DNA of 64,000 nucleotides from a virus. This document shows positions 640-63,098 of the stretch, piece after piece. The notes under the pieces were generated by a model, which worked only from the letters and a program-made list of their open reading frames with translations, searched no databases and was not told the origin of the DNA. How positions within the stretch are numbered: the first letter of the stretch is position 1; each line of letters starts with the position of its first letter. The position numbers and the translations under genes are program-made. The stretch covers positions 32,001 through 96,000 of the IMG/VR virus record IMGVR_UViG_3300032246_001368; one strand, given 5' to 3'.

Positions 640-1116
640 TTATTCCTGTTCAATATCAGGAAGTAATTCTACTCTTTCTCTCTTTGGTTTGTCATAAATC
701 TTTGACATAATCTCATCTCTTGTTGCGATTAACACATTAGTAGTTGGTGGCTTAATACTCTTGACAGCCGACACTTCCATCTCTTTGAGCTGAATACTAT
801 TCTTAATATTTTTATTCTGCATATTAAGTTTATTGAGACTATCAATTGCTTTTGTGGTCGCATTAATTAAAGAAGCAAGTGCACCTATCTCCATAGGATT
901 CTGACCAGTTATAATAATATCTTTTAAAGAATTAACTGCATCTAAACTTGCTTCAATATTCTCCGTTGTTTTTCGAATAACATATTCATTGATATTCTCA
1001 TCATTGACATCTGGTATGATTATTGCCTCATTATCTGTCGCAGTTAGTTTACTTGAAGATACAGAATCTGCCTTGAGCTGTTCTACTATAGCATCTATTT
1101 CGTTATTTGATTCCAT
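640..1116 (-). CDS. Probable terminase small subunit (T4 gp16-like)
   Basis: Size and pattern (helical NPMEIGALASLINATTKAIDSLNKL, then TNVLIATRDEIMSKI) resemble T4-like gp16 proteins. Confidence 0.45.
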   Translation of the reverse strand: MESNNEIDAIVEQLKADSVSSSKLTATDNEAIIIPDVNDENINEYVIRKTTENIEASLDAVNSLKDIIITGQNPMEIGALASLINATTKAIDSLNKLNMQNKNIKNSIQLKEMEVSAVKSIKPPTTNVLIATRDEIMSKIYDKPKRERVELLPDIEQE

Positions 1117-5590: not shown

Positions 5591-8500
5591 ATGCAATCAT
5601 CCTTAGTCAATAATCTTTTAGCATATTGGAAATTAAACGAAACTAGTGGAACGAGATTAGATTCTACTGGTAATAATCATTCCATATCAGAGGCAAACGG
5701 AACCGTTAATAGTGCTAGTGGTCTTTTATCCAAAGCTGCTTACATTTCTAACGGAAATACAAATTCTTGGTTAAAATTACCCCCCGGAATTTGTGATGTA
5801 GGAAACGGGCAAAAAACATTTTCTATATGGTTTAAAATAAATCAGACAAATATAGGATATCAATGGATATGGATGAATGGGTATACTGGAGGTTCTAATG
5901 ATATAGGTATTTGTTATATTGAAAATGGCAGTTATTTAAATTCTTTATTCGTAACAAATACAGAAAGTCATTGGGATGCATACAATCTTGGAGGAAATAT
6001 AGTTCCTACAGCAAATGTTTGGCATCATTTTGTTTGCACATTTAGTGGAGATACATACACTGCCTATTATGACGGGGAACAGATAGCTCAATTTGGTTAT
6101 AGTGGTACAGTTATATCCAGCGGCACGGAATATACATTAGGCCATTATAATCAAGCTCCTACCCTTGGTGCTTTCAAGGGAGCACTGGATGAAGTAGGTA
6201 TATGGAATAGAGTTTTATCACCAGCCGAAATAACCAATTTATACAACAATAGATTAGGAGATTCTTATCCCTTTTATGGTCCATCAAATTTTGTCGTAGA
6301 CTTAAATAGAGGATATGCAGGAGTTACAGAATTCAATTTTAATTCCTATATAAATCCTGCATATGAAGTAACCGCTGTATTATGGGGATTTGGTGATGGA
6401 TCAACCAGCAGAGAGTTAAATCCTAAACACACATACTACGTTCCAGGCAATTATACGGTTTATTTTAATATATACACATCTTCAACAGAAGTTATTAGTT
6501 TAACTAGTAATGTAAACATAGATGTATATTTAAATGAATCAATATATTTTGATTTTGTTCCTCCTCCTACTTTTGCCGGTCATTACAACAGATACCCATT
6601 TAAAATTAATATTACATCAAGTAATACTGGTCCTCATTATATTGATCTTGGAGCCCAATTCTCAAGATCTTATCAATCACAAAATCCATCTAATAAATGG
6701 TCTTTCCTCAGACCACAATGGAGATTTTTAGATTTAGACGGTAATGTCATAACATCAGTTAAAACAAAAGATACAATTATTAAGATTAATAATAGCAATG
6801 CTATAGATCCCACAGGTTTTGTGGCTGGTGTAACAGGAACTGCAGAATTTTATTTCGTTGATGATATATACAATTCAGATTTAGTTGTATCCAGACAACC
6901 TTATACAACACTCATAGCAACTCTTCAAACAAGTGCTATAAGATCTTTTAAAGATGGTATAAACACAGATAAAGAATTGCCTAGTTTTAGTAATAGTTTA
7001 GCAATAGCCACCAGTCCTTATATGGTATTGTGGAGAACACCAGAGAATATCAAAATAACCGAGAACGGCATTAGACAGCACAGTAATCCAAGATGGAATG
7101 GCGTTAATAATAGTCTCATAGTAAACACAGATTTTAGAGAATATGCATACCCTGATGAATGGGTAGATGGTAAGGGAGTGGAGATAGCATCCCCTGAAGA
7201 TTTTTTCATACACAATTTTCCGTTATCCAATTCTGAAGAAATAAAATTAAATGTAGGTGTTGTGGGATTAAGTGCTAATTTTACACCCCAACCCACAGAA
7301 ATGGTTTGGATAGACGAAACCGGTTATAAGGTTCCAGGATATTATAAAGGAAGATTTGAAACGTCTCATGTAGATACTTTAGGTGCTACAATTACTGCTA
7401 ATACCACCATTACGATGCCTCCAATGTCTAGTAATTTCTTCAATCCTGTGTTATGGGTGTCTAATCCAGAAGCTGGAATGTTGGCTACTGTACAATACAA
7501 ATACCAACCCAATTTATCTGACGCAACGACCTCTAATTTAGATGTTGCACAAATCTTTACTTTTGACGTTCCTATATTAAATGACGATGTTGATTTTGTA
7601 AAAGATCCCATGGCGTTATCAGGGTTCCACGGCATTAATAGTTTTGCAGCTTTGCCATCACCCAATTATCATGCATGGGCATCTGATTCAGAATTAAATT
7701 ATCTTTATAGATTTTCTTCCAACGGTCAAATTCTTTGTGCTGTAGATATTAATAAAATTATTACAGATAATAAATTAGGATTTTCAGTTCCTAAACAATG
7801 CTCACCAGTGTCTATTGCTCTTGATGGCAATCGCAATATATGGATGACTCTTTACGATACTGTATCTACATTAAAATTTGATAGTATGGGTAATTTCTTA
7901 TTTGCAGTTAGCCCATTATCAGCTACTGGTTATCCTTTACCTCCTAACATTTCTCCAGATTGGTTCGGAGAGTCTTCATATTATGATGCTAATGATTATC
8001 CTCCTTCTGGAAACGGTGATAATAATTTCGTAGAACCTACTGGTCTGGATACTGACACCAAAGACAATGTTTGGGTATCATATTCTAATTATGCTAGTGG
8101 ATATCTTGTAAAATATAGCTCCTCTGGCGGTTTATTAAATTCTCTAACATTTCCTCTTTGTTCTTGTCCTCAAGAAATTGTAGTAGATAAAAATGACGAT
8201 GTATGGTTAGCATTATCCAACCATATTTGGAATGGTCCTAGTTATATTGTAAAATTAAATTCTAATGGTCAAACATTAAGTTCTTTTGGTCCTTATAATG
8301 GTGTTAATCATTTAACAATAGACGTAAATCAGAATCTCTGGTTTACCTATAGTTATCAATGGATTGGTAATATAAACAACCTAACAGCGGATGTAACTAC
8401 ATTAGAAGTATCAGGAAATAATGTAACATCCAATATTCCAAATTGGTGGGACCCTAATTTAAATACAGATGAAACTGCTCTCGAAGGCATTGCAACCGAT

Positions 8501-9633: not shown

Positions 9634-12600
9634 ATGGCGATCACGGATCCAGCATTTTTTATTAAAACGGTAGGCTCCTGGCCTAATGAAGTCTATCAGA
9701 TAGCTCCATCAGCTCAACTTATTAATCCTAGCTTAGGATTTTTACCTGCTGAAAATCTTTTAAGGTATCAAAATAATCCAATCAATGAAACAGATAATTT
9801 AGCAGATTTTCAATATTCAAATACCAATTATTATCTCAACGCAGACACAGGACAATATAATATAGATACAAATAATAATGCTACCATTCAATGGAATGTA
9901 TCTAGCATGAGATACAAATATAATATTGGTCCCCAACTTAATTATTTTTATATAAACATCGATCAAAGTAGTTCTGTCAGAAACTACTACGCATATTTAT
10001 TATATCCCTATAAGCTTTCATTAAAGCCTACAGGCAAACCAACTAAAGTAGGTAATAACTGGAGTCTTACAACAACAACAGTTCTTGTAAATCCTTCAAG
10101 CTTTTTCTTTTATACTTCCTCTCCAGGAGCTGTTGGTTATGATCAGCATACAAAGTATCTCATAGATAATCCAGTAACAGGGCCATTAGGAATATCATCA
10201 AGCAATTATTCAATAGTATATAATCTTTGTGCTTGTCGAACACGAGTAGACGTGCCGATTGTTAAATTTACTAATACATATAATCCTTATTTTATAAACA
10301 CAGTCTTAGAGCCTAATGGTGCTAGCATAAGACCAGATTCTACATTTGTATCTTTCAACGTAAAATATCTCAGCACAAGTAAAACAGTTACTACACTTGG
10401 GCAAGATTTACCTGACGAGACACCAGGTCAACATCATGGATTTAAATCTAGTTATATATTGAAATATGATCCTACCGTATCTAACACACAAATATTCCAG
10501 TTAATTCAAAACAAACCAAAGAATGATACAAGAGATTTATTAGACCCCAATCTTTGTGTATTGAGTGCAACTATTAATTTAGATACTACCAACTTTAGAT
10601 ATTTTAGTAATTACTACTTTGTAAACAATACTACTATCATAAACAATATAACCGGAACTCCAGGTTCTTATATTGGTTTTAGATATATAGCGGACTGCCC
10701 CACTCTACAATATACCGGAGAAACATGGCAAAGTACTGTAGTAAGTTTTAACAATACGGGCGGCGCACAATTAGGAAAGCCTATTAATACTAATGTATCA
10801 GGATATGATTCCACAACATGGACAACCAAATACCCACCGCATTATTATTCTTTCAAAGCTTCATTATCTTCATCAACACAACTGCCGTTACTAGACACTG
10901 CTAGCTTAACCTTTTATCTATATTCTTCTGCGATTAATACATCTTTAACAACTGCTACTTTATCTACATATATAAAGTCGGATTTTAATTTTATTAAATA
11001 TGATCTTTGGACTTATAGTCAAAATGACTATATCAAATTCTCTCCGATCAATACAGATTCTTTATTACTGTCTTCTATATATTGCTATTATGGAAACAAT
11101 CAGGATATACCGTATTCATTGTTAACATCTCCTTGGATACCCGCATCTTCTGCAAACACATTTTTAGTTACCTATCCTGGTATTCCTTACGGTGAAATAG
11201 ACTTGACCCTTAGGCCAACACTTTGTTCTGTTGCTGGTTATTTAGATGCATATGAAGCCATAAACTTAAAAATGGCTCAAGGTTATAAACAACCAAATCC
11301 AGGCAATCCCATATTTTTAAATTTACTAGAAGAAGGCCAAGATTATATAAGTGTAAATTCATCATTCATGATCTCTGAAAGTGCTTGGCCTACTAGAGAT
11401 TTAAGAGATTCTTATATATCTTGGTCTGTATACCCTTCAGGAAATACTGTATCCATTAATGCTATCGACACCACAGGGGCATATATAACCAATATACAAC
11501 CAAATTCAGCAGTATTGTTTAATACTAATACTTGGTCAGTTATGGTATCTGGTTATGGACCACAAACAACCTTTATATATCTTTCTTCTCAAAAATATAA
11601 TGAGACAACTTCTCTCACGAGTAATTCAGCTCTATTTGATTATTTTGCAGAAAATCAATTCATAGTAGGACCTTCAATAGGGCTTAATAACCTTAACCAA
11701 ACTCGAACCATTCAATTGACAGCGGTAGTTCCTTATAAGGGTAGAATTTACAGTGTACCAAGCAGCACACCTATTTACTGGTATTGGACCTACGATGATA
11801 TCGATGATGCTTCTCTTCAGCCTATAGAAGCGTCTTATAAAGATTACACAAATTACGATTATGGCATAACAGATAATGCTTCCACTCTTAGTGCTCTTAA
11901 TTTAAGAATAACCCCCCCCTCTGTTATACAATCACCCAACGTACACAGTATTAAAGTATTTGTAGTATCGTATACAAAGATGCCTCCAATATCTGGTTCT
12001 TATCAATTCTATGTTGATGATTTTCCATCTTCAAGTGTATTCAACACCAATTTTACAACTTCATATACTTCATATCCTCTAACAACTATATCCGATAATA
12101 GCTCTGGAAGAACCGTTGTAACTCGTCCAGATAATGGTACCAATTTATTCACATTATCAGCTAATACAAACTCAGTACCTTTCTTAGATCCTACAAGTAT
12201 TGTTTGGGTATTAAGTTCAACAAATGGCAGTTCCCAAACACTATCAAATAGTGCTAATCCTTTTAGTATAAATCTTTCATCACCAGCAACCACAAATGTT
12301 TCTCTTTGTGCTTTAAATTGCATAGTGCCGGGATGGATAAGTGCTCATAATACACAAGCATCCGCTGTGTTTTATATAATGTCACAAAATGACTTTTTTA
12401 ACCCTTTAAAAATAATAACATTCCCTTCAGAATCCTGGTTGCAGCGCACTCAATACCTCACATTTTTAGATCAGAATAATTACACTTTATTCGGAGCATC
12501 GACTGCATATGCTAATAAAAAGACATCATCCCAAATTTTCTATCTATCTGCTAATAAATCAGATTTTAATGAATACATATATACAGTAGGATCTAAAAAT

Positions 12601-44062: not shown

Positions 44063-44140
44063 AAATCTAAAGGAAAGATAGTGGTTATTAAGTAATTACT
44101 AATAAGTAATGATAAGGTTATTAGTTTAACCTTGCAAGGT

Positions 44141-44962
44141 ATGGCATATACGACTACTCAACTCACCACTATAGAAGCAGAATTAAGGGCTAACTCTAAA
44201 GTATCTCCATATGTTTTGTTAACTCCTACTGGTGGAGTGAGTGTTCTAACACAAGGTTGGTTAAATTCTCTCAGTGCCAATATAACTCCTACTAGTGTAA
44301 CCTCACAATTTTACCCTTCAGTTATTCTAGGATCGTCGTTTACGTATATAGCCCCTACAACTACGACTACTACTACTACTTCCACCACACCGACTACTAC
44401 TACCTCCACATCTACATCTACAGATACAACAACCACAGCAGTCACTACCACTTCATCGATAGATGGAGGATCGCCTATTGATGGTCAGCTTTTACCATCT
44501 GGTTCAGGTTTATTTGGTTGGTTATCTTATATTTACGAAAAACTTACAGGGACCATTAATGTAAGTGTTGAGAATAATCCGATAGTAGAAGTAGATTCCG
44601 GTTCTCCAGTTACCACAGAATCATTACCCTCAGGGTCAGGAGTAATCGGTTGGTTGTCATATCTTTATTCAAAAACAGCTACTGAAGCAAAAGCCACCAC
44701 AGCAGTCATATCCAGGTTCAATGCAGTGGTAAGCACACAGATTTGTGCACAAAGTGATACAAGGGTTTCTTTAGTAGTATATAATATAGGACCAGCCAAT
44801 CTTTATATATCCCAAGGTGATACTGCTTGTAGCTTAACAAATTTTACATATTGTTTATTGGCAGGAGGTACCTTTTCTGCAGAGCCTCGTGAAGTGGGAT
44901 TAGAATATAGAGCGTTCTTCCCTACAGGCGGAAGCTACGCTCAAATTACAATAGGAACTTAA
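44141..44962 (+). CDS. Putative virion decoration protein with poly-Thr linker and internal duplication
   Basis: Thr run; LPSGSGLFGWLSYIYEK and LPSGSGVIGWLSYLYSK duplicates. Confidence 0.6.
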   Translation: MAYTTTQLTTIEAELRANSKVSPYVLLTPTGGVSVLTQGWLNSLSANITPTSVTSQFYPSVILGSSFTYIAPTTTTTTTTSTTPTTTTSTSTSTDTTTTAVTTTSSIDGGSPIDGQLLPSGSGLFGWLSYIYEKLTGTINVSVENNPIVEVDSGSPVTTESLPSGSGVIGWLSYLYSKTATEAKATTAVISRFNAVVSTQICAQSDTRVSLVVYNIGPANLYISQGDTACSLTNFTYCLLAGGTFSAEPREVGLEYRAFFPTGGSYAQITIGT

Positions 44963-44964
44963 TC

Positions 44965-45204
44965 ATGATATCCCAACCAGCAGCAACTTATAGTACAGTA
45001 GTAACATCTAATTTTGTTACAGTTAATAATGCCTACAACGGTTTTAGCATACCGGCATTTGATGCCAAGATATTAGGTCTTAGTTTAACCAACAACATTA
45101 CAAGTGTAACATTTAAAACTGGAGGTCTTACAGGAACTACAGTAGCTCAATTAGTTTATACTTTCGATGCGAATAGTAATATAACATCTGTAGTAAGGTA
45201 CTAA
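44965..45204 (+). CDS. Small virion-type protein
   Basis: ITSVTFKTGGLTGTTVAQLVYTFDANSNITSV pattern of phage fibre-associated peptides. Confidence 0.5.
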   Translation: MISQPAATYSTVVTSNFVTVNNAYNGFSIPAFDAKILGLSLTNNITSVTFKTGGLTGTTVAQLVYTFDANSNITSVVRY

Positions 45205-45213
45205 ATAATATAT

Positions 45214-46917
45214 ATGGCAAACATCAAAGCAATAGCAAATGGCAATTGGTCAGCCACATCTACATGGTCAAATTCAACTATACCTGGAGCAGGTGATGTG
45301 GTTTATTCCAACAACTTTGCCATAGTAATCGATGTCGATGCAACTGCAGATACTATTAGAAACGATGCAGCAAGTGTAACATTTAACAACGGAGATACGT
45401 CTTGTGTTGGTGGGGGTGTTTATACTTTAAACACTGGTAAAAATTTAACCGCTAATTTATACTGTGCTAATATAGGAACCGGTGTAGGGCTCAATAAAGG
45501 AATGGTTCTGACATCTGGCACAGGCAATTCTATCATCACTGGTAATTTATCAACAGCTAATGCCAATCTAAATCTAAGATGTCTGTATATTGAAACTAAT
45601 TGCACTATACGAGTTATTGGAAATGTAACATCCAATCCAAACACCAGCTCAGGCAATACATATTCCTGTATTTTTCTTTCTGGCGGAGGCAATTTATATA
45701 TAGGAGTTTCTGGAACACCAACAACAATTACAGCTGGTGGATATTCCACTTGTTATGGTATACAAATGACCAATGCGATGGGAACACTTAACATCGTTGG
45801 AAATATATATGCAAATTCAGCAGGAGCCGCGGGTATATATGATCCAAGTTACGCTGTAAATTTTGTTCTTACTGGCAATATATATGCAGTAGGTAGTGCA
45901 TACGGGGCGCAACTAAATAGTGCAGCCACAGCTGTTATAACCGGTAATATATATAATTCCGGTAATCTGTATGGTTTTTATGGATGTTCTTATATAAAAT
46001 TAACGGGTGATATAGTATTAACCGGTACAGGTGTTGGAGTGTATATAAATGGTAGTAATACAATCCCCAACGAGATAACTGGTAATATTAGTATAGCGGT
46101 CGGAGGGCAATCCGGTTTTTGGAATAATGGTTCTACGCCCACAATTTTTACCGGAACCATAACCAATTATGGTACGGTATATGGGTTATTTAATAATACG
46201 GGAGCTCTTACGGTCAATATACCCGGTTCCAGTCCGACCACCTATGACGGAACCGCACAATCATTTGGCACTGCAACCAATGCAAGTGTGTTGGGATTGG
46301 GCCCTGGTACATTGACATTTAATGGCAATATTGCAGGTGGTGGAGTTGCAAATAATTCATATGGAATACATACATTATCTAATACTCCTATGACCATTAA
46401 CGGGAATGTATCTGCGGCTGGTTCCGCTGGAATATATTGCAATGCTAATCCAGCATACATTACAGTAACTGGTAATGTATGGGGCGGAACTGCAACAAAT
46501 GCTCACGGATTGCGTATGGACGGCACTCCCACAGCAATTACCATTAATGGAAGCGTGTCAGGCGGAAATGTTAATGGAGCATTGGCTCATGGAGTTTATG
46601 TTGCTGGCACTACTACGAATATTGTAGTATATGGAAATATATCTGGTGGCCTTGGTGGTAATGGTATTAATAATCCTACAAGTACAGCTACCCATGAATT
46701 CAGAGGAAGCTACTTCTCATCTGGTCCTACAGGCTTTGCAGCCTTCTGTGTTCCTAAATTTATAACATCGTCAACCCCTCCCTTGGCTAATAATCGATTT
46801 GCTGTAAACGGAAACTTCTCAGCACCTACCTACGTAGATTACTATACAACAGATAATCCAAATGTGGGTGCAACATCAATTACTCAGGTAACCCCGAAAT
46901 ATGTAATATCTATTTGA
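45214..46917 (+). CDS. Beta-helix adhesin/tail-spike-like protein
   Basis: ANGNWSATSTW N-terminus and repeated ITGNI/GNV turns; TAAATA at 45202. Confidence 0.65.
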   Translation: MANIKAIANGNWSATSTWSNSTIPGAGDVVYSNNFAIVIDVDATADTIRNDAASVTFNNGDTSCVGGGVYTLNTGKNLTANLYCANIGTGVGLNKGMVLTSGTGNSIITGNLSTANANLNLRCLYIETNCTIRVIGNVTSNPNTSSGNTYSCIFLSGGGNLYIGVSGTPTTITAGGYSTCYGIQMTNAMGTLNIVGNIYANSAGAAGIYDPSYAVNFVLTGNIYAVGSAYGAQLNSAATAVITGNIYNSGNLYGFYGCSYIKLTGDIVLTGTGVGVYINGSNTIPNEITGNISIAVGGQSGFWNNGSTPTIFTGTITNYGTVYGLFNNTGALTVNIPGSSPTTYDGTAQSFGTATNASVLGLGPGTLTFNGNIAGGGVANNSYGIHTLSNTPMTINGNVSAAGSAGIYCNANPAYITVTGNVWGGTATNAHGLRMDGTPTAITINGSVSGGNVNGALAHGVYVAGTTTNIVVYGNISGGLGGNGINNPTSTATHEFRGSYFSSGPTGFAAFCVPKFITSSTPPLANNRFAVNGNFSAPTYVDYYTTDNPNVGATSITQVTPKYVISI

Positions 46918-46947: not shown

Positions 46948-47205
46948 ATGACAATAGAAGAAGAGAATCAATATTACAAAACATTAATACAAGAAGTATC
47001 AGACGCTATGGACCGGAATGCTTTGATCTTGTATAAGTGGGAAAAGGTTGCGGAGAAATTAGTTAACCACTTAGAACCTTATCTTAAGTGGCCTGAGGAT
47101 AAAGAAATGCTTGAAGTATATTCTACGCTTAAAGATTACCACTCTTTAAAGAATGAGATAAGAACAAATAAATCTAAAAGCTCGTTGACATATCCCGAAA
47201 AATAA
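46948..47205 (+). CDS. Hypothetical protein
   Basis: 85 aa, own early promoter. Confidence 0.5.
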   Translation: MTIEEENQYYKTLIQEVSDAMDRNALILYKWEKVAEKLVNHLEPYLKWPEDKEMLEVYSTLKDYHSLKNEIRTNKSKSSLTYPEK

Positions 47206-47218
47206 TATACTATAAATA
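47185..47218 (+). promoter_or_regulatory. Sigma70-type promoter overlapped by a T4-type late promoter, driving a non-coding transcript
   Basis: TTGACA-17 nt-TACTAT (47185-47213) and TATAAATA (47211-47218); no start codon follows. Confidence 0.75.
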
Positions 47219-47255
47219 AATAAGAATTGATCTTTGATAGTACATTTTAAAAATT

Positions 47256-47870
47256 TGACCGTTCGCAGGCTCGATCGAAAGAGCTACCGTACGTGTGCGT
47301 GACTAGGTTGCTCTGAAAGGCCTTCATCAACCGGTGCACAAGGATGGATTAACCACCCCGGTCATAATAATTTGATTACTGCGTACAGTCCTCGGTAGTA
47401 GCAATACTAGTCCGAAGCCGCGGGTAAGGGCGAAAGCCTTAGACTTCCTAGCTCCGATAGGCCAGTAATCATTAAATTAATACTCTCTAGTTTTAGGAAT
47501 TATTCTAGAGAGGGGTAAGGACGAGTTGCTTGTTGGTATGTTAGTAGTCCTTATTCAAGTTAGGGGAGCCAAAAACCTATGGTAAGCTTTGATCCTAGCA
47601 TATTGATTAAACACAAGCTGGACGGTTAGTATAGGCTCCACGCCCGAACGTCGTTAAGGAAAGAACAAAATCCGGAATAAAATCTTTCAATACCAATAAT
47701 TTCTTTAGTAATGCTACCATCGCACGTCTCAAGTCGTGTATAAGTCGGGTCGGACCGTAAAAATGCAGAGAGAATAAAGAGAAAAAGCAGCGCCCTGTGT
47801 AGGTTGCAAACTACCGAATGAGTTGGAGTAACCCCTCCCACCATGTAGTCCTCGACGGAGGAGCAGGGAC
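47256..47870 (+). ncRNA. Candidate large structured ncRNA (or cluster of 2-3 ncRNAs)
   Basis: No credible ORF, GC-richer than flanks; closing helices TGACCG/CGGTCA, TGATTACTG/CAGTAATCA, CCCTG/CAGGG; GCAA/GAAA tetraloops; crossing long-range pairings. Confidence 0.75.
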
Positions 47871-47914
47871 ATTTTCTTATTGAATTTCCAACAACAACAT
47901 AATATAATATATAC

Positions 47915-48313
47915 ATGATTAGCACCACAATACCTTACGAATACAATGACGGCGGATTTAAAGACTCAGGCATTCAGGATACTAACAATTGTACTATCGT
48001 AGCGTTTGCTATTGTTACGGGTATGGAATATAGTACAGCAGACCAAATTGGCGTTAAGACCAAGAGAGTTCGTCGTCGAGGCCATTGGCCAGAGAAGATG
48101 GTGAACTATTCTAAAAGGGTATATGGTCTTAGATTTAGGAAGTTTAAATTTGCTTCTATAACCTTACAGAAGTTCCTTAAGAAGTATCCCACCGGAAGGT
48201 ATTATGTTGCTAATAAGGATCATTGCTTTGCTATCATTGATGGTGTGGTTCAAGACCATGCTATGCTGGTCAGACCCTTCCAGATTATCAAGAACGCCTG
48301 GCAGATAATTTAA
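47915..48313 (+). CDS. Papain-like (C39-related) Cys-His-Asp phage protein
   Basis: NNCTIVAFAIVTGMEY ... DHCFAIIDGVVQD. Confidence 0.5.
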   Translation: MISTTIPYEYNDGGFKDSGIQDTNNCTIVAFAIVTGMEYSTADQIGVKTKRVRRRGHWPEKMVNYSKRVYGLRFRKFKFASITLQKFLKKYPTGRYYVANKDHCFAIIDGVVQDHAMLVRPFQIIKNAWQII

Positions 48314-48314
48314 T

Positions 48315-48674
48315 ATGAGCCAGAATCTTAAATTATATTTTGTTAGGTTTATACCTAAGAAGGGTGGAGTAGGAGAATTCTATAAATTTGGATACACACA
48401 TCATTTTGACTTTATGAAGAGATTCCAAGAGGACAAATATAAAGATTGGTATATTAGTCCTATGACATCTGCATATGGTCCTGAGGATGAAGTATTAAAA
48501 GCTGAAAAAGAACTACTTAAAAAATATCCTAAGAACATTTACATTCAAGAAAAGATTAGCGGTGTGACAGAAATCTTTGTACCCAAAGACCAAAGAGAGA
48601 TTCAAAACATATTTGCATATTTCAGTGCAAAAAGAAATGAGTGGTATGAAAAAAGAAAAGCAGATATTACTTGA
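48315..48674 (+). CDS. GIY-YIG/T5orf172-like protein
   Basis: LYFVRF...FYKFGYT...KRF...AEKEL...GVTEIF pattern. Confidence 0.45.
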   Translation: MSQNLKLYFVRFIPKKGGVGEFYKFGYTHHFDFMKRFQEDKYKDWYISPMTSAYGPEDEVLKAEKELLKKYPKNIYIQEKISGVTEIFVPKDQREIQNIFAYFSAKRNEWYEKRKADIT

Positions 48675-55699: not shown

Positions 55700-55736
55700 T
55701 CTTGAGATTACCCCCAATAACCTATATACTAATAGT

Positions 55737-55910
55737 ATGAACAATAAGAACACCGTAAAGGATATCGTCGATCATCTGGAGTCCAAGGATATGTCCAAGG
55801 ACTTCATCATTGGAACCCTGATGGCCATGCTCGATGGTCTCACCTATGAGTATAGTGGGACCGCGCAGCAGACCATCGATAGTTACATCAACCGCTACGT
55901 CAACAACTAA
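55737..55910 (+). CDS. Small early protein (MNNKNTVKDIVDHLES...), below the ORF-track cutoff
   Basis: ATG 6 nt after TATACT. Confidence 0.55.
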   Translation: MNNKNTVKDIVDHLESKDMSKDFIIGTLMAMLDGLTYEYSGTAQQTIDSYINRYVNN

Positions 55911-55952
55911 TAGGGATTGACCTTTCCCCCTAAACCCTAGATAATAATAACA

Positions 55953-56378
55953 ATGAAAAACACCACCTCGTTTGATCTCGACACCATCTCCTCTTACGAT
56001 AGCCTCCAGAAGGCTGCTAGGGCTCGTTGTAAACATACTAGCAGGGAGGGCAATGTAGGCCTTACCTTCTCTATCTTTGAAAGCGCTTATGGTTGTCCTA
56101 TTAAGGGAGACTGGGTAGTTCGCCATCCTGATATCTTTGATGAGGGAGCGGTATTCGAAGGCAAGTGTGTCTTTGTTACCGATTACTGGAGGGTATCTGA
56201 GAATGAGGTATTCAGCGAGCCTATGGAGAATCCTACCTGGAGCGATATCATTAGCGAATGTAATCGCCAGCTCATTGATCCAGAGGACGGTAGTACCGCT
56301 TGCCTCTTCCTTGAAGGCTTCTATGAGCTCGAGCCTAAAGACGGATGCCGAGTATTTGATATCTGTTGGGGCTCTTAA
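55953..56378 (+). CDS. Early hypothetical protein
   Basis: Own promoter; NPTWSDI...FLEGF. Confidence 0.6.
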   Translation: MKNTTSFDLDTISSYDSLQKAARARCKHTSREGNVGLTFSIFESAYGCPIKGDWVVRHPDIFDEGAVFEGKCVFVTDYWRVSENEVFSEPMENPTWSDIISECNRQLIDPEDGSTACLFLEGFYELEPKDGCRVFDICWGS

Positions 56379-56416
56379 GAGTTGATCTTTCCCCCATAAT
56401 CCATTATACTAATAGT

Positions 56417-56668
56417 ATGAAAAATAAAGCATACCAATTCACCGAGATGTCCGAAGAAGAGCGTTCCATGCATCTCTTCTATACGATCGAAGGAATGATC
56501 GAAAGCCTCCAGGAGATTAGCAATGAGATGGATCCTGAGTCTCCTACCGGATGCAGTCGCCTAGCCCTCATATCTGATATGGAAGAGAAGATAGAGGCTC
56601 TTTACAATCGAGTTCATAAGGACTTTATCTCTAACAAAACCAAGAACGCAATCGCCTACTCTATCTAA
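56417..56668 (+). CDS. Early hypothetical protein
   Basis: ATG 6 nt after TATACT. Confidence 0.6.
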   Translation: MKNKAYQFTEMSEEERSMHLFYTIEGMIESLQEISNEMDPESPTGCSRLALISDMEEKIEALYNRVHKDFISNKTKNAIAYSI

Positions 56669-60328: not shown

Positions 60329-60409
60329 CTTTAATACAGAGGCATAAAATAATAACGCCGGCCTCTCTATTAACGTGAATTTTCCCACGTAAAGATTTAT
60401 ACTTATAGT

Positions 60410-60610
60410 ATGAAAAATGAAATGAACCGACACGAGAAGCTTGAATGGCTCTATGAAACCTGTGCCACCAGCTTCCTTCAAAACAACCTCATTCAGGAAA
60501 TGGTTACCTGGATGGGAGAGGATGAGTTCGATAAGTTCTACGAACACCTTTGCCGCAATTGGGAGATTGCTCGAAGCCCAGAAGAGCTAGCAGAGAAGAT
60601 GTTTTCTTAA
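60410..60610 (+). CDS. Early hypothetical protein
   Basis: ATG 6 nt after TATACT. Confidence 0.6.
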   Translation: MKNEMNRHEKLEWLYETCATSFLQNNLIQEMVTWMGEDEFDKFYEHLCRNWEIARSPEELAEKMFS

Positions 60611-60670
60611 CGGGGCAAGGGGGGAGAGGTTGTGGTGGCCTTTCCCCCCTAAATCCTAGATAATAAATGT

Positions 60671-60895
60671 ATGAAAAATAAGAAAACGTTCGAAGAAATC
60701 ATGACAGAGTACAGGGCCCTGGGCGACATGATGCGCACCATGGTTCGTAACACAGCCGTAATGGAGCTGAGAGAGTGGGGCTTCGAGGAGATCGGTTCCT
60801 CAGATGTTAACTGCCAGATCGTCGACCTCTACAACAGCTACGGAGGATTCGACGAGATCGTACGCCACGGCCTCGAACTCGTAAGGACCCACTAA
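60671..60895 (+). CDS. Early hypothetical protein
   Basis: ATG 6 nt after GATAAT. Confidence 0.55.
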   Translation: MKNKKTFEEIMTEYRALGDMMRTMVRNTAVMELREWGFEEIGSSDVNCQIVDLYNSYGGFDEIVRHGLELVRTH

Positions 60896-60896
60896 T

Positions 60897-61052
60897 ATGA
60901 TCACCATCAAAGTAACCTTATCAAACGGCAACCGTTGGACCACAGGCTTCAACGGGACCCTCCAAGACGCAGAGACCTACTATGTCGGTAGGTACTTCGA
61001 GACCGCAGACGAGCTTCATTCCCATGAATGCGTCAGAGTCGAATTGATTTGA
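60897..61052 (+). CDS. Small early protein (TGFNGTLQDAETYYVG motif)
   Basis: 51-aa ORF coupled to the previous gene. Confidence 0.5.
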   Translation: MITIKVTLSNGNRWTTGFNGTLQDAETYYVGRYFETADELHSHECVRVELI

Positions 61053-61083
61053 ATTTCCCCCATAAACCAAATATAATAATAGT

Positions 61084-61407
61084 ATGAAAATTAAGAACGC
61101 CCGAATGCAGTGGAGTCAATCAATGCGCTCCAAGAAGTCCGTCATGTACTTCTTTCCTACCGGAGAGACGATCCTCGATAATCTCGCTCAGCGTCGTAAG
61201 CGTCCTGTAAAGGAGTTTCGAGCGCTTATACCTCAAGTATGCGCAGCTGTTGGTATTACCAATATGCAAGACCTGAAGTTTAGCTGGAGCCAGAAGGCTG
61301 GATGCTCTTGCGGTTGCTCTCCAGGATTCGTAGTTAAAGGTCTCTATTGCAAGGACATCTTCGTCGATGTTACCATGGAGAACGACTTCGAAGGTCTTGG
61401 ACTCTAA
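61084..61407 (+). CDS. Conserved phage protein (WSQKAGCSCGCSPGF motif)
   Basis: CxCxC motif; own promoter. Confidence 0.65.
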   Translation: MKIKNARMQWSQSMRSKKSVMYFFPTGETILDNLAQRRKRPVKEFRALIPQVCAAVGITNMQDLKFSWSQKAGCSCGCSPGFVVKGLYCKDIFVDVTMENDFEGLGL

Positions 61408-61459
61408 GATTGTTTTTCCCACCTAAACCCATTATACTATAGGAACAATCAAACACCAC

Positions 61460-61726
61460 ATGAAGAACACTGACCCCACACAAAACTGCACAGACGCCCT
61501 TATCCTTTTGGTCAACAATGACGAATGGCTTCACCAGAGCTGGAGGAAGACTCTCCGCGCAGGCAATATGGTCCACGTTAAAGATGCCTTGGAAGAGGCT
61601 GGATTCACCTACACTCCTTTCCAGTGGCAGGCTCTAGAGTTCGAGTTCGAGGACGAGCTTCAGGCTGAAGAGGATGCACAAGAGGCTAATGAGTTCTTCG
61701 TTGAGCTGTCCACATCAAACAACTAG
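61460..61726 (+). CDS. Early acidic protein
   Basis: Own promoter; acidic C-terminus. Confidence 0.55.
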   Translation: MKNTDPTQNCTDALILLVNNDEWLHQSWRKTLRAGNMVHVKDALEEAGFTYTPFQWQALEFEFEDELQAEEDAQEANEFFVELSTSNN

Positions 61727-61735
61727 AATAGACTC

Positions 61736-61960
61736 ATGATTAAGAAAGAACACAGAGACAGAACAGTAGACGAACTCGTAGACCTCTATCAGAAAGAGCT
61801 TGAGGCTCAAGGACTTACAGGAGCTGATAAGTGGGCTCGCTTAGCAGGAATGATCCAGGGACATTTCTCCTTCAGCATGACTTGGATGGGGACCAAGAAG
61901 GACATACAACAATCTCTCAACAATGTGGTAAATGATCTCGAAAAGAAGCTCACAGCCTAA
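61736..61960 (+). CDS. Early hypothetical protein
   Basis: 74-aa ORF. Confidence 0.5.
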   Translation: MIKKEHRDRTVDELVDLYQKELEAQGLTGADKWARLAGMIQGHFSFSMTWMGTKKDIQQSLNNVVNDLEKKLTA

Positions 61961-62084
61961 ACCTTTAACATAGAACATTTTATGAAGAACACCAAAACAG
62001 TAATAGCAGCAATCGCAACACTCCTCCTCTGTGCCGCAGCCATTAAGGATTGAATTTCCCCCATAAACCTAATATACTAATAGT

Positions 62085-62345
62085 ATGAACAATAAGAACA
62101 CCACATACAAAGGAGAAGCAGCAGTCCTCAAGTACCAAGAGATGGTAGAAGAGATCGCAGCCCTAGGCGAGAGCTACATCCTCACCGAGATCGAGATCAA
62201 GAACAATACATTCAAGCAAGAGCCTAACCTCTACAAGCGCATGGCCCTCCTAGGAGAGATCACGATGCTTGAGAAAGCTCTCAAGGCCATCAAAGACATA
62301 GAGGCTGCAGACAAGTATCTTCTAAGTCAGACAGATAAGAGCTAA
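62085..62345 (+). CDS. Early hypothetical protein
   Basis: ATG 6 nt after TATACT. Confidence 0.55.
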   Translation: MNNKNTTYKGEAAVLKYQEMVEEIAALGESYILTEIEIKNNTFKQEPNLYKRMALLGEITMLEKALKAIKDIEAADKYLLSQTDKS

Positions 62346-62443
62346 TAACATTTCATAGCGGGTGGGTCGAGGGAGGAGACTTGTGGTGGGTCTCCTCCCT
62401 CTTTGCTGTTGAGATTCCCCCATAAAGGTCTTATAATAATAGT

Positions 62444-62818
62444 ATGAAAATTGAGAACACCACACCTACTGAAGCTCAAATCGAACTCGCCGGCTACCTC
62501 CTCACGCGCGAGACCATCTTCATCGAAGAGTGTGAGGCCGATATCAAAGCCGGCAAGACCGTCTGGTATGGAGTCGCCAGCACGAGCCTAGAGGACATCA
62601 TGGGTCTTACCCCCTACCGTAGCGGCTATAAGGACATCGCCGAGTATGAGTACCAAGAGGACCTCATTGAAGCTAAGGAGGCTCGTAAGAACTGGTACTG
62701 CGATCAACAGGATGCCTGGGAAGAGGAACAAAAGAAAGAAGAGGAAGCTCACCAGAAGGCCCTCAGAGAGTATGTAAAGACTGAATACCAACCACTAGGA
62801 GTCCCAGTCCTAGTGTGA
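62444..62818 (+). CDS. Early acidic protein
   Basis: ATG 6 nt after TATAAT. Confidence 0.55.
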   Translation: MKIENTTPTEAQIELAGYLLTRETIFIEECEADIKAGKTVWYGVASTSLEDIMGLTPYRSGYKDIAEYEYQEDLIEAKEARKNWYCDQQDAWEEEQKKEEEAHQKALREYVKTEYQPLGVPVLV

Positions 62819-62861
62819 TTGGGGTATTGCCTTTCCCCCTTACAGCTTATATAATAATAGT

Positions 62862-63098
62862 ATGAACAATAAGAAATACGATGAACGTCACGGAGGCCCT
62901 TACGATCGCGGACACGCCGACAGCTACTACCGTCGCTCCAGGGAGCCTCACTACTACATGGCTGGCACTGGAGGCTCCCCACGCATCGAGGAGGCCAATA
63001 TGACGCCAGAGGAGATCGAAGCCTACCATGCCGGCTATGATGCCAATGAGGCCGAGGGAGACTTCAAGGACTATGGATGGGGAGGAGGCCGCTACTAA
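62862..63098 (+). CDS. Conserved small phage protein (RHGGPYDRGxADSYY family)
   Basis: RHGGPYDRGHADSYYRR...EIEAYHAGYD. Confidence 0.65.
   Translation: MNNKKYDERHGGPYDRGHADSYYRRSREPHYYMAGTGGSPRIEEANMTPEEIEAYHAGYDANEAEGDFKDYGWGGGRY

Follow-up and report, generated by a model that had tools for sequence, protein, structure and literature searches.

A conserved, modular non-coding RNA locus with a divergent twister fold in a distant T4-like lake phage

Described phage RNAs and the setting of the new locus

By analogy, the nearest precedents for the RNA locus analyzed here are the theta ribozymes located beside phage tRNAs and the tRNA cluster of T4, which includes two stable RNAs. The T4 RNAs rnaC and rnaD (species 1 and 2) are stable, ~120–140 nt long, of unassigned function, and co-transcribed with tRNAs, with short A/U linkers in between. 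The new locus likewise belongs to a T4-type phage, and short linkers (AAUUUGA or AAAUUAA type) connect its three folded modules (M1, M2, and M3). Kinship with rnaC and rnaD was nonetheless rejected: there is no sequence likeness, and the T4 RNAs carry a T-arm (GGTTCGAATCC) and ACCA ends, whereas M1, M2, and M3 lack both. The T4 cluster also differs in having no ribozyme. Theta ribozymes are self-cleaving, have their cut site next to phage tRNAs, and are proposed to mature 3′ ends (PMC10879173). A further comparison is with GOLLD and ROOL, which, like the present locus, are phage-encoded, lake-derived, often beside tRNAs, pseudoknotted over several hundred nucleotides, and without an assigned function. 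GOLLD and ROOL (studied by cryo-EM), and also OLE, form homo-oligomers that are stabilized partly by kissing loops (PMC12286853). Covarying self-complementary loops are suggestive of pairing between copies in the new locus as well. However, it has no sequence or structure match to GOLLD or ROOL, its modules assort independently, it ends in a ribozyme, and its multimers are predicted ones, such that the likeness is one of kind only.

The locus lies within a 64,000-nt stretch of viral DNA (the window, from the first letter of which all positions are counted) that is part of a 111.6-kb IMG/VR virus record, about half complete. The record encodes a T4-type clamp loader and a baseplate wedge protein, with nearest cultured relatives 37% identical. 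An 85-aa gene ends at 47205 and the next gene starts at 47915. Between 47206 and 47914, the + strand contains no open reading frame (ORF) of at least 30 aa, in agreement with a sequence-only reading of the window that had noted no credible ORF and had proposed one ~620-nt structured RNA. The − strand contains a 100-aa ORF (47626–47928) and two shorter ones, which had no Pfam or PHROG match. That reading had also described the stretch as richer in GC than its flanks, which is true of the immediate flanks (0.40–0.455 inside vs 0.30–0.37), although coding DNA at 46100–46900 is equally GC-rich. The tRNA cluster of this phage, which includes a tRNA-Met(CAU), is 10.7–12.6 kb downstream, and the RNA operon stands alone here. 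The folding energy of the stretch was not unusual relative to shuffled sequence (z = −0.5 for the + strand, −0.8 for the − strand); hence, the case for an RNA rests on comparison with relatives. This comparison indicates that the gene-free stretch contains a conserved non-coding RNA locus, a genuine one, encoded on the + strand of a freshwater (lake) phage distantly resembling T4. The explanation that we consider likely, taken as a whole, is a stable-RNA operon with a boxA-like leader, a chain of three separately folded RNAs (not one giant RNA), of which M1 and M3 would form kissing dimers, then a divergent twister that trims the 3′ end, and a folded terminator.

The lack of functional RNA of any kind was weighed against these observations. 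The stretch could instead be a decayed gene, − strand coding sequence (ORF 47626–47928), or a collection of DNA signals, such as palindromic protein-binding sites, and the 100-aa ORF, an enrichment of GC-rich palindromes, and the non-significant folding z-score would all agree with this. It is, however, very unlikely, and we give it almost no weight, as compensatory changes affect more than 30 pairs, no family matches the ORF, and the promoter, leader, and terminator are conserved. Many of the G-U pairs are valid on the + strand only, as the sequence-only reading had argued.

At gathering scores, nothing in the stretch matched Rfam. The GOLLD and ROOL models were without a match at that score and also at E ≤10 with lax filters (47100–48000), under which the sole notable match was a weak one to the type-P1 twister (47705–47777). 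Rfam 15 has no match for M1, M2, or M3, and literature searches yielded no description of this RNA family, though one may exist. The earlier suggestion of a large structured phage RNA, possibly of a new class, therefore holds in that the locus looks transcribed and its RNA is structured, pseudoknotted, on the + strand, and in its main parts outside Rfam 15, whereas ~85 nt of it belong to a known class, twister-P1. Echoes of RNase P RNA that had been seen by eye were dropped (no Rfam match at E ≤10, modules dispensable).

Relatives of the locus and the assortment of its modules

A blastn search with the stretch gave no match among GenBank phages (50,697 records), and no loci related via the upstream 567-aa gene were found. 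The downstream gene led to the closest relative, L002, which holds only ~280 nt between the same flanking genes, consisting of the leader, a short module of another kind, and the twister. Identity between the window and L002 peaks (94–95%) at two short blocks: one is the leader, and the other directly precedes the twister. These blocks form the two borders of swapped cargo. Two genes upstream of the locus in the window (44132–46917; 276 and 567 aa, no family match) are missing from the otherwise syntenic L002. The family was collected with two DNA patterns, one for the twister-like core and one for the middle of the stretch. Each matched 18 loci in viral contigs, and 31 loci were matched in metagenomes, 28 of them real and three (L035, L040, and L047) by chance, with no other likeness. 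Among 185,579 prokaryote genomes searched for the M3 pattern, there were two matches, both due to chance and also devoid of other likeness. Collected members were all from lake and other freshwater samples, and the loci include 23 distinct full copies of M3 (at least 23 distinct relatives). As the homologues form about three subfamilies, independent compensatory events are few.

Relatives share a common plan: promoter, nearly invariant leader, cargo, twister, and a 3′ hairpin or domain with a U-run. In the window, the order on the + strand is promoter, boxA-like leader, M1a, M2, M3, twister-P1, and a 3′ domain with a four-way junction. The stretch had previously been credited with its own promoter, and a sigma-70-type promoter is indeed present at 47185–47213 (+ strand; TTGACA-17-TACTAT, 10/12 consensus match), with a −35/−10 pair equally distant from the leader in all relatives. 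The leader (47216–47254, + strand) contains a boxA-like core, TGATCTTTGATAG, at 47228–47240. Its nearly invariant sequence in relatives is AAUAAGAAUUGAUCUUUGAUAGUACAUUUUAA, and it is 94–96% identical to them, compared with 72–80% for their other DNA.

The boxA of E. coli rrn operons reads UGCUCUUUAACAA. Against this consensus, from which the boxA of the host may differ, the window motif (GAUCUUUGAUAG) matches at 8 of 12 positions, and the form found in L006, L018, and L038 (GAUCUUUAACAG), which is close to the E. coli one, matches at 10 of 12. Shared with rrn-type boxA are a U-rich CUUU core that closely follows the promoter and precedes any stable RNA, and the use of one motif by two kinds of stable-RNA unit, here the RNA operon and tmRNA. 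What differs is that the window motif departs at 4 of 12 positions. The motif occurs once in the window and precedes the RNA operon in all relatives, and in nine related contigs the same motif (UUGAUCUUUGAUAA) sits 8–9 nt ahead of the point where the phage tmRNA gene begins. These placements indicate that the leader motif marks stable-RNA transcription units in these phages. Its resemblance and position fit antitermination, although it may be a processing signal instead. The tmRNA genes of related phages are themselves recognizable (L012:9154–9600 and L013:5230–5662; Rfam, 107–111 bits), with TTGATCTTTGATAA located 8–9 nt upstream.

The first module, M1a (47255–47364, + strand; ~110 nt), is closed by UGACCG/CGGUCA and has three inner hairpins. 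Its fold has 33 predicted pairs, four of which show compensatory changes among 10 distinct homologues. Other relatives have a second version, M1b, in the same slot (13 sequences), also with a closing stem and three inner hairpins, and with compensatory changes in four pairs. M2 (47372–47471, + strand; ~100 nt; six distinct homologues) is closed by GAUUACUG/CAGUAAUC and comprises GCAA- and GAAA-capped hairpins and one expandable hairpin. It is almost invariant outside the expandable hairpin, which ranges in length from 16 to ~56 nt and to which covariation is confined. The modeled M2 fold is therefore best described as plausible.

M3 (47475–47694, + strand; ~220 nt) has six helices and two pseudoknots, assessed across 23 distinct homologues. 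The helices are H1 (47483–90/47505–12), H2 (47513–22/47547–56), H3 (47562–65/47593–96), H4 (47621–25/47651–55), H4b (47632–36/47642–46), and H5 (47659–64/47683–88), all on the + strand. PK1 pairs the H2 loop with 47613–18 (47528–33/47613–18), and PK3 pairs the H1 loop with 47576–80 (47493–97/47576–80). In the model, 93.6% of alignment cells are paired, and 19 of 49 pairs are changed on both sides. None of 500 shuffles did as well, and slid controls reached 38–55%. Approximately 90 positions are invariant, many of them in loops and joints.

Several elements of M3 had been proposed in the sequence-only reading, and comparison separates those that are conserved from those that are not. The hairpin at H1 is 100% paired in the 23 homologues (three pairs changed on both sides), and the stem at H2 is kept with compensatory changes, its 88% pairing being a lower bound due to a misplaced MAFFT gap. 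The GCTTGT/ACAAGC pseudoknot, equivalent to PK1, is 99% paired, with three of six pairs changed on both sides. A second pairing of that loop, TTGGTATGTTAG/CTAGCATATTGA, did no better than shuffled partners, and neither did GGAG..CCTAT/ATAGGCTCC. The latter helix is replaced by the covarying local hairpin H4b (GGC-UCCAY-GCC, with variable extensions) and by the pairing of the H1 loop in PK3. Two other proposed helices, ACGGTT/GACCGT and GCCCGA/TCGGGT, would join M3 to an insertion in the twister (47745–47758) that is found only in the window, L045, and L049, and the partner segments on the M3 side show uncompensated differences in L049. Pairing of UGGUA in the H2 loop with the AUACC tail gave a poor result in a test weakened by an alignment that is ragged at its 3′ end. 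Complementarity is 96% for GGAGCC/GGCUCC, but this pairing is invariant, has three uncompensated mismatches, and competes with the covarying local hairpin; it is possibly a tertiary or alternative pairing. Among the pairings tested in homologues, none between modules was supported.

The constant parts among relatives are the leader and twister only, and modules are gained and lost independently, as is directly visible in the collected loci. The M1 slot holds M1a (as in the window), M1b, or no module (L028). M2 is present in only six distinct sequences and is missing from most relatives. A tRNA-Met(CAU) comes directly after the leader in L018, L023, L028, L038, L039, and L057. For example, L006 and L019 consist of leader, tRNA, M1b, and twister, without M3; L028 consists of leader, tRNA, M3, and twister, without M1; and in L049 a tRNA-like insert separates M3 from the twister. 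The twister follows M3 in every relative with enough sequence, and tRNAs adjoin the RNA locus in most relatives. Because of this independent assortment, we take the locus to be a stable-RNA operon whose 3′ end a ribozyme would trim, and not a single GOLLD/ROOL-like RNA.

The earlier idea of one ~620-nt RNA is thus not borne out, as relatives combine M1 (in two versions), M2, M3, and tRNA or other cargo in various ways. In its strongest form, M1a, M2, and M3 would together make a single large ornate RNA (~490 nt after the twister cut, ~650 nt uncut) that forms RNA-only multimers through self-complementary loops, as in GOLLD and ROOL. This would fit the co-transcription of all parts from one promoter to one terminator, and with two covarying palindromic loops per molecule, rings or chains could form. 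The lake-phage origin, the tRNA neighbors in most relatives, and the homo-oligomers described for GOLLD, ROOL, and OLE (partly via kissing loops; PMC12286853) are also in its favor. We regard it as unlikely nonetheless, because every module is found in some relatives that lack the others and keeps its own palindromic loop, pairing between modules is unsupported, and the Rfam GOLLD and ROOL models are unmatched.

Genes neighboring the RNA operon vary among relatives, and most have no family. Two genes downstream of the locus in the window, a 119-aa ORF (48315–48674, + strand) shows a weak match to an endonuclease PHROG and a DpnI-type HTH. Homing endonucleases occur in the T4 tRNA cluster (segB) and could drive cargo exchange. 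The tRNA-like gene of L049 has a recognizable acceptor, D-arm, and T-arm and a long insertion mid-gene; ARAGORN made no call.

The twister and the 3′ domain

Between M3 and the 3′ domain is a divergent type-P1 twister (47699–47782, + strand), which the sequence-only reading had not listed and which is the only one in the window. Its elements, all on the + strand, are P1 (47700–07/47775–82), P2 (47712–14/47765–67), P4 (47723–26/47735–38), and the pseudoknots T1 (47728–30/47770–72) and T2 (47716–17/47733–34). Matches to the Rfam model (twister-P1, RF03160) were low-scoring in the window (21.9 bits, E 0.063) and at the same site in relatives (25.8–32.4 bits), all below the gathering cut-off of 67.2. 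Evidence for the fold comes from an alignment of 30 distinct copies, including eight from unrelated contexts (one each in L003, L004, and L017, two in L011, and three in L009). Across these copies, 83.8% of cells are paired and 15 of 22 pairs change on both sides; none of 500 shuffles was as good, and slid controls reached 33–51%. All nine pairs of P1 and three of the four in P4 change on both sides, and the G-C/C-G core of P2 is invariant. T1 is 100% paired, with a middle pair that is U-A in 26 copies, C-G in two, and U-G in two, and T2 is 98% paired (A-U and C-G). L009 holds both T1 forms, and L023 and L058 represent the U-G intermediate. The core nucleotides (the cut-site UAA, the CAAG of the P4 loop, the AAA preceding the P2 3′ strand, and GAG) are invariant or nearly so and match the upper-case Rfam consensus.

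The order of elements is that of RF03160 (P1, UAA, P2, P4 with a CAAG loop, AAA, P2 3′ strand, GAG.G, P1 3′ strand), the fold is open at P1, both pseudoknots can form, and P1 and P4 covary. Differences from RF03160 include T1 (C-U-C:G-A-G instead of CCC:GGG), T2 (A-C:G-U instead of G-C:G-C), the absence of P3, 20 nt inserted before AAA, and the position of the window copy at the end of a stable-RNA operon. The lowered Rfam score goes with the two changed pseudoknots and the missing P3. Since every departure from the consensus is compensated, the score is explained without arguing against the fold. In addition, a covariance model built from the eight unrelated-context copies only had the window copy as its top match (34.8 bits, E ~1e-8). 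A second match of this model in the window (806–875, − strand; 19 bits, E 0.003) was attributed to chance, being inside ORF 640–1116 and without the CAAGUC and GAGAG cores. By its fold, 47699–47782 is thus a type-P1 twister, with self-cleavage as a prediction. The giant-virus MAG-labeled L009 carries three twisters (188–272, 6431–6523, and 11831–11912), two with the canonical T1 CCC:GGG and one with CUC:GAG. L011 has, besides two P1-type twisters, a Twister-P5 above the Rfam cut-off (L011:3097–3152).

Twisters cut in the U-A step after the P1 5′ strand, leaving a 2′,3′-cyclic phosphate on the upstream RNA and a 5′-OH on the twister. From this chemistry, the predicted cut in the window is U47709|A47710 (+ strand). 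To our knowledge, the biological roles of twisters are still largely unclear, and the arrangement modeled here would give one of them a defined, testable role in the 3′ trimming of a stable-RNA operon. In the theta system, too, a small ribozyme is placed so that its cut sets the 3′ end of an upstream stable RNA (PMC10879173), and in L049 the upstream gene is tRNA-like. The present case differs in the class of ribozyme (twister, not HDV-like), in a cargo that is mostly non-tRNA, and in the 9-nt tail contributed by the P1 strand.

The 3′ domain (47790–47879, + strand) has a closing stem, CCCUG/CAGGG, around three hairpins (47799–802/47811–14, 47825–28/47835–38, and 47850–53/47858–61) and is followed by a U-run. 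A terminal multibranch domain with this closing stem (CCCTG/CAGGG, 47793–97/47864–68) had been anticipated, and six distinct homologues bear it out, as double changes preserve both its closing stem (CCCUG/CAGGG or CCCAG/CUGGG) and its last hairpin. The domain is probably a structured terminator. In relatives, two other 3′ ends are found after the twister: a simple hairpin with terminator, or a third kind of module. As structured domains also follow the cut, the 3′ fragment could be a functional product.

A rival reading is that the twister mainly serves what lies downstream, either by insulating or tuning neighbor genes or by freeing the four-way-junction domain as the active RNA, with the upstream part as a processed leader. 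The three kinds of conserved folded domain that come after the twister would be accommodated by such a role. It is quite improbable, however: a U-run closes the 3′ domain, the next gene is served by a separate promoter (TTGAAT-17-TATAAT, 47880–47908), the genes downstream differ among relatives, and conservation of the upstream modules goes far beyond what a disposable leader needs. Trimming of upstream stable RNAs is the role that we retain for the twister.

Self-complementary loops and a proposed mechanism

The apical loop of M1a includes a self-complementary sequence, AAGGCCUU (47317–47324, + strand), in which the central pair shows compensatory change: it is G-C in seven sequences and C-G in three (AAACGCGUUU), with the palindrome kept. 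The matching site in M1b reads UCGGCCGA or A-GUGCAC-A. In M3, UCCGGA is located in the 18-nt apical loop of H5 (47671–47676, + strand) and undergoes double changes in relatives, where the loop reads UUCCGGAA, AUUCCGGAAU, AUACUAGUAU, or UUCUAGAA. The innermost pair switches from C-G to U-A and the third pair from U-A to A-U. M1 and M3 each keep a self-complementary loop even where the module occurs alone. The innermost pairs of these loops cannot form within one hairpin; hence, the simplest reading is pairing between two copies, and the compensatory changes suggest that the apical loops of M1 and M3 do so. GC-rich palindromes are enriched across the region; therefore, only the three covarying apical ones carry weight, and some of the others could be incidental. 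The HIV-1 dimerization initiation site (DIS) is a kissing loop with a 6-nt palindrome in an apical loop. This same arrangement is seen here, and the M1b of relatives even has A-GUGCAC-A, although the HIV-1 RNA is unrelated, and it is covariation that points to inter-copy pairing in the phage modules.

In the mechanism that we envisage, host RNA polymerase would start at the sigma-70 promoter, and the boxA-like leader probably recruits Nus factors, allowing the polymerase to read through heavily folded RNA. Transcription would then yield independently folding M1a, M2, M3, twister, and four-way-junction terminator. The twister would cut at U47709|A47710, freeing the upstream RNA (or RNAs) with a 2′,3′-cyclic phosphate and a 9-nt tail and leaving behind the twister and terminator domain with a 5′-OH. 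Finally, the self-complementary apical loops of M1a and M3 probably pair with those of a second copy as kissing dimers. Our best guess at function, the most likely of several weak options, is that M1a, M2, and M3 accumulate to abundance as stable, self-pairing RNAs and, in early infection, bind or sequester a factor of the host.

A bolder version of this proposal, which we put forward tentatively and with low confidence, is that M1, M2, and M3 are new self-assembling phage RNAs, each with a DIS-like kissing loop. Transcripts with two such modules, like that of the window, could link into RNA-only chains or rings, the cyclic-phosphate end left by the twister would protect them or mark them for ligation, and the assembly would act as a decoy or scaffold for a host factor early on. 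If true, GOLLD and ROOL would be joined by a third kind of multimeric phage RNA, one of modular build. Independent of that, three strongly conserved folds without a catalog entry are added to the few complex phage RNAs that have no assigned job. The constant leader and twister around swappable cargo resemble a natural cassette for expressing folded RNAs. From the covarying self-complementary loops, RNA-RNA dimers or multimers are predicted, which would connect this family with the recent discovery that large RNAs of phages function as assemblies made of RNA only.

Other features near the operon were observed. Genes just downstream of it in several relatives (L028:9747–10163; L008:2589–3005, − strand; and L005:2530–3384, − strand) include one for a 139-aa protein with a DxDxT-like start (VDFDDTLF) and one for a calcineurin-like phosphoesterase weakly resembling a PHROG named RNA ligase. 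RNA-end-healing enzymes would be of interest beside a ribozyme leaving cyclic-phosphate and 5′-OH ends, a link that is speculative, with genes that are not adjacent in the window. Group I introns occur within a few kilobases of the RNA operon in three relatives (L005:5756–5988, L010:3301–3525, and L008:3907–4013, all − strand; Rfam, 78–86 bits), the L008 copy being cut off by the end of the locus. Lastly, blastn against L002 revealed a ~50-nt sequence repeated at least seven times in the early-gene/tRNA region of the window (55700–56434 and 60376–62879), probably representing promoter repeats.
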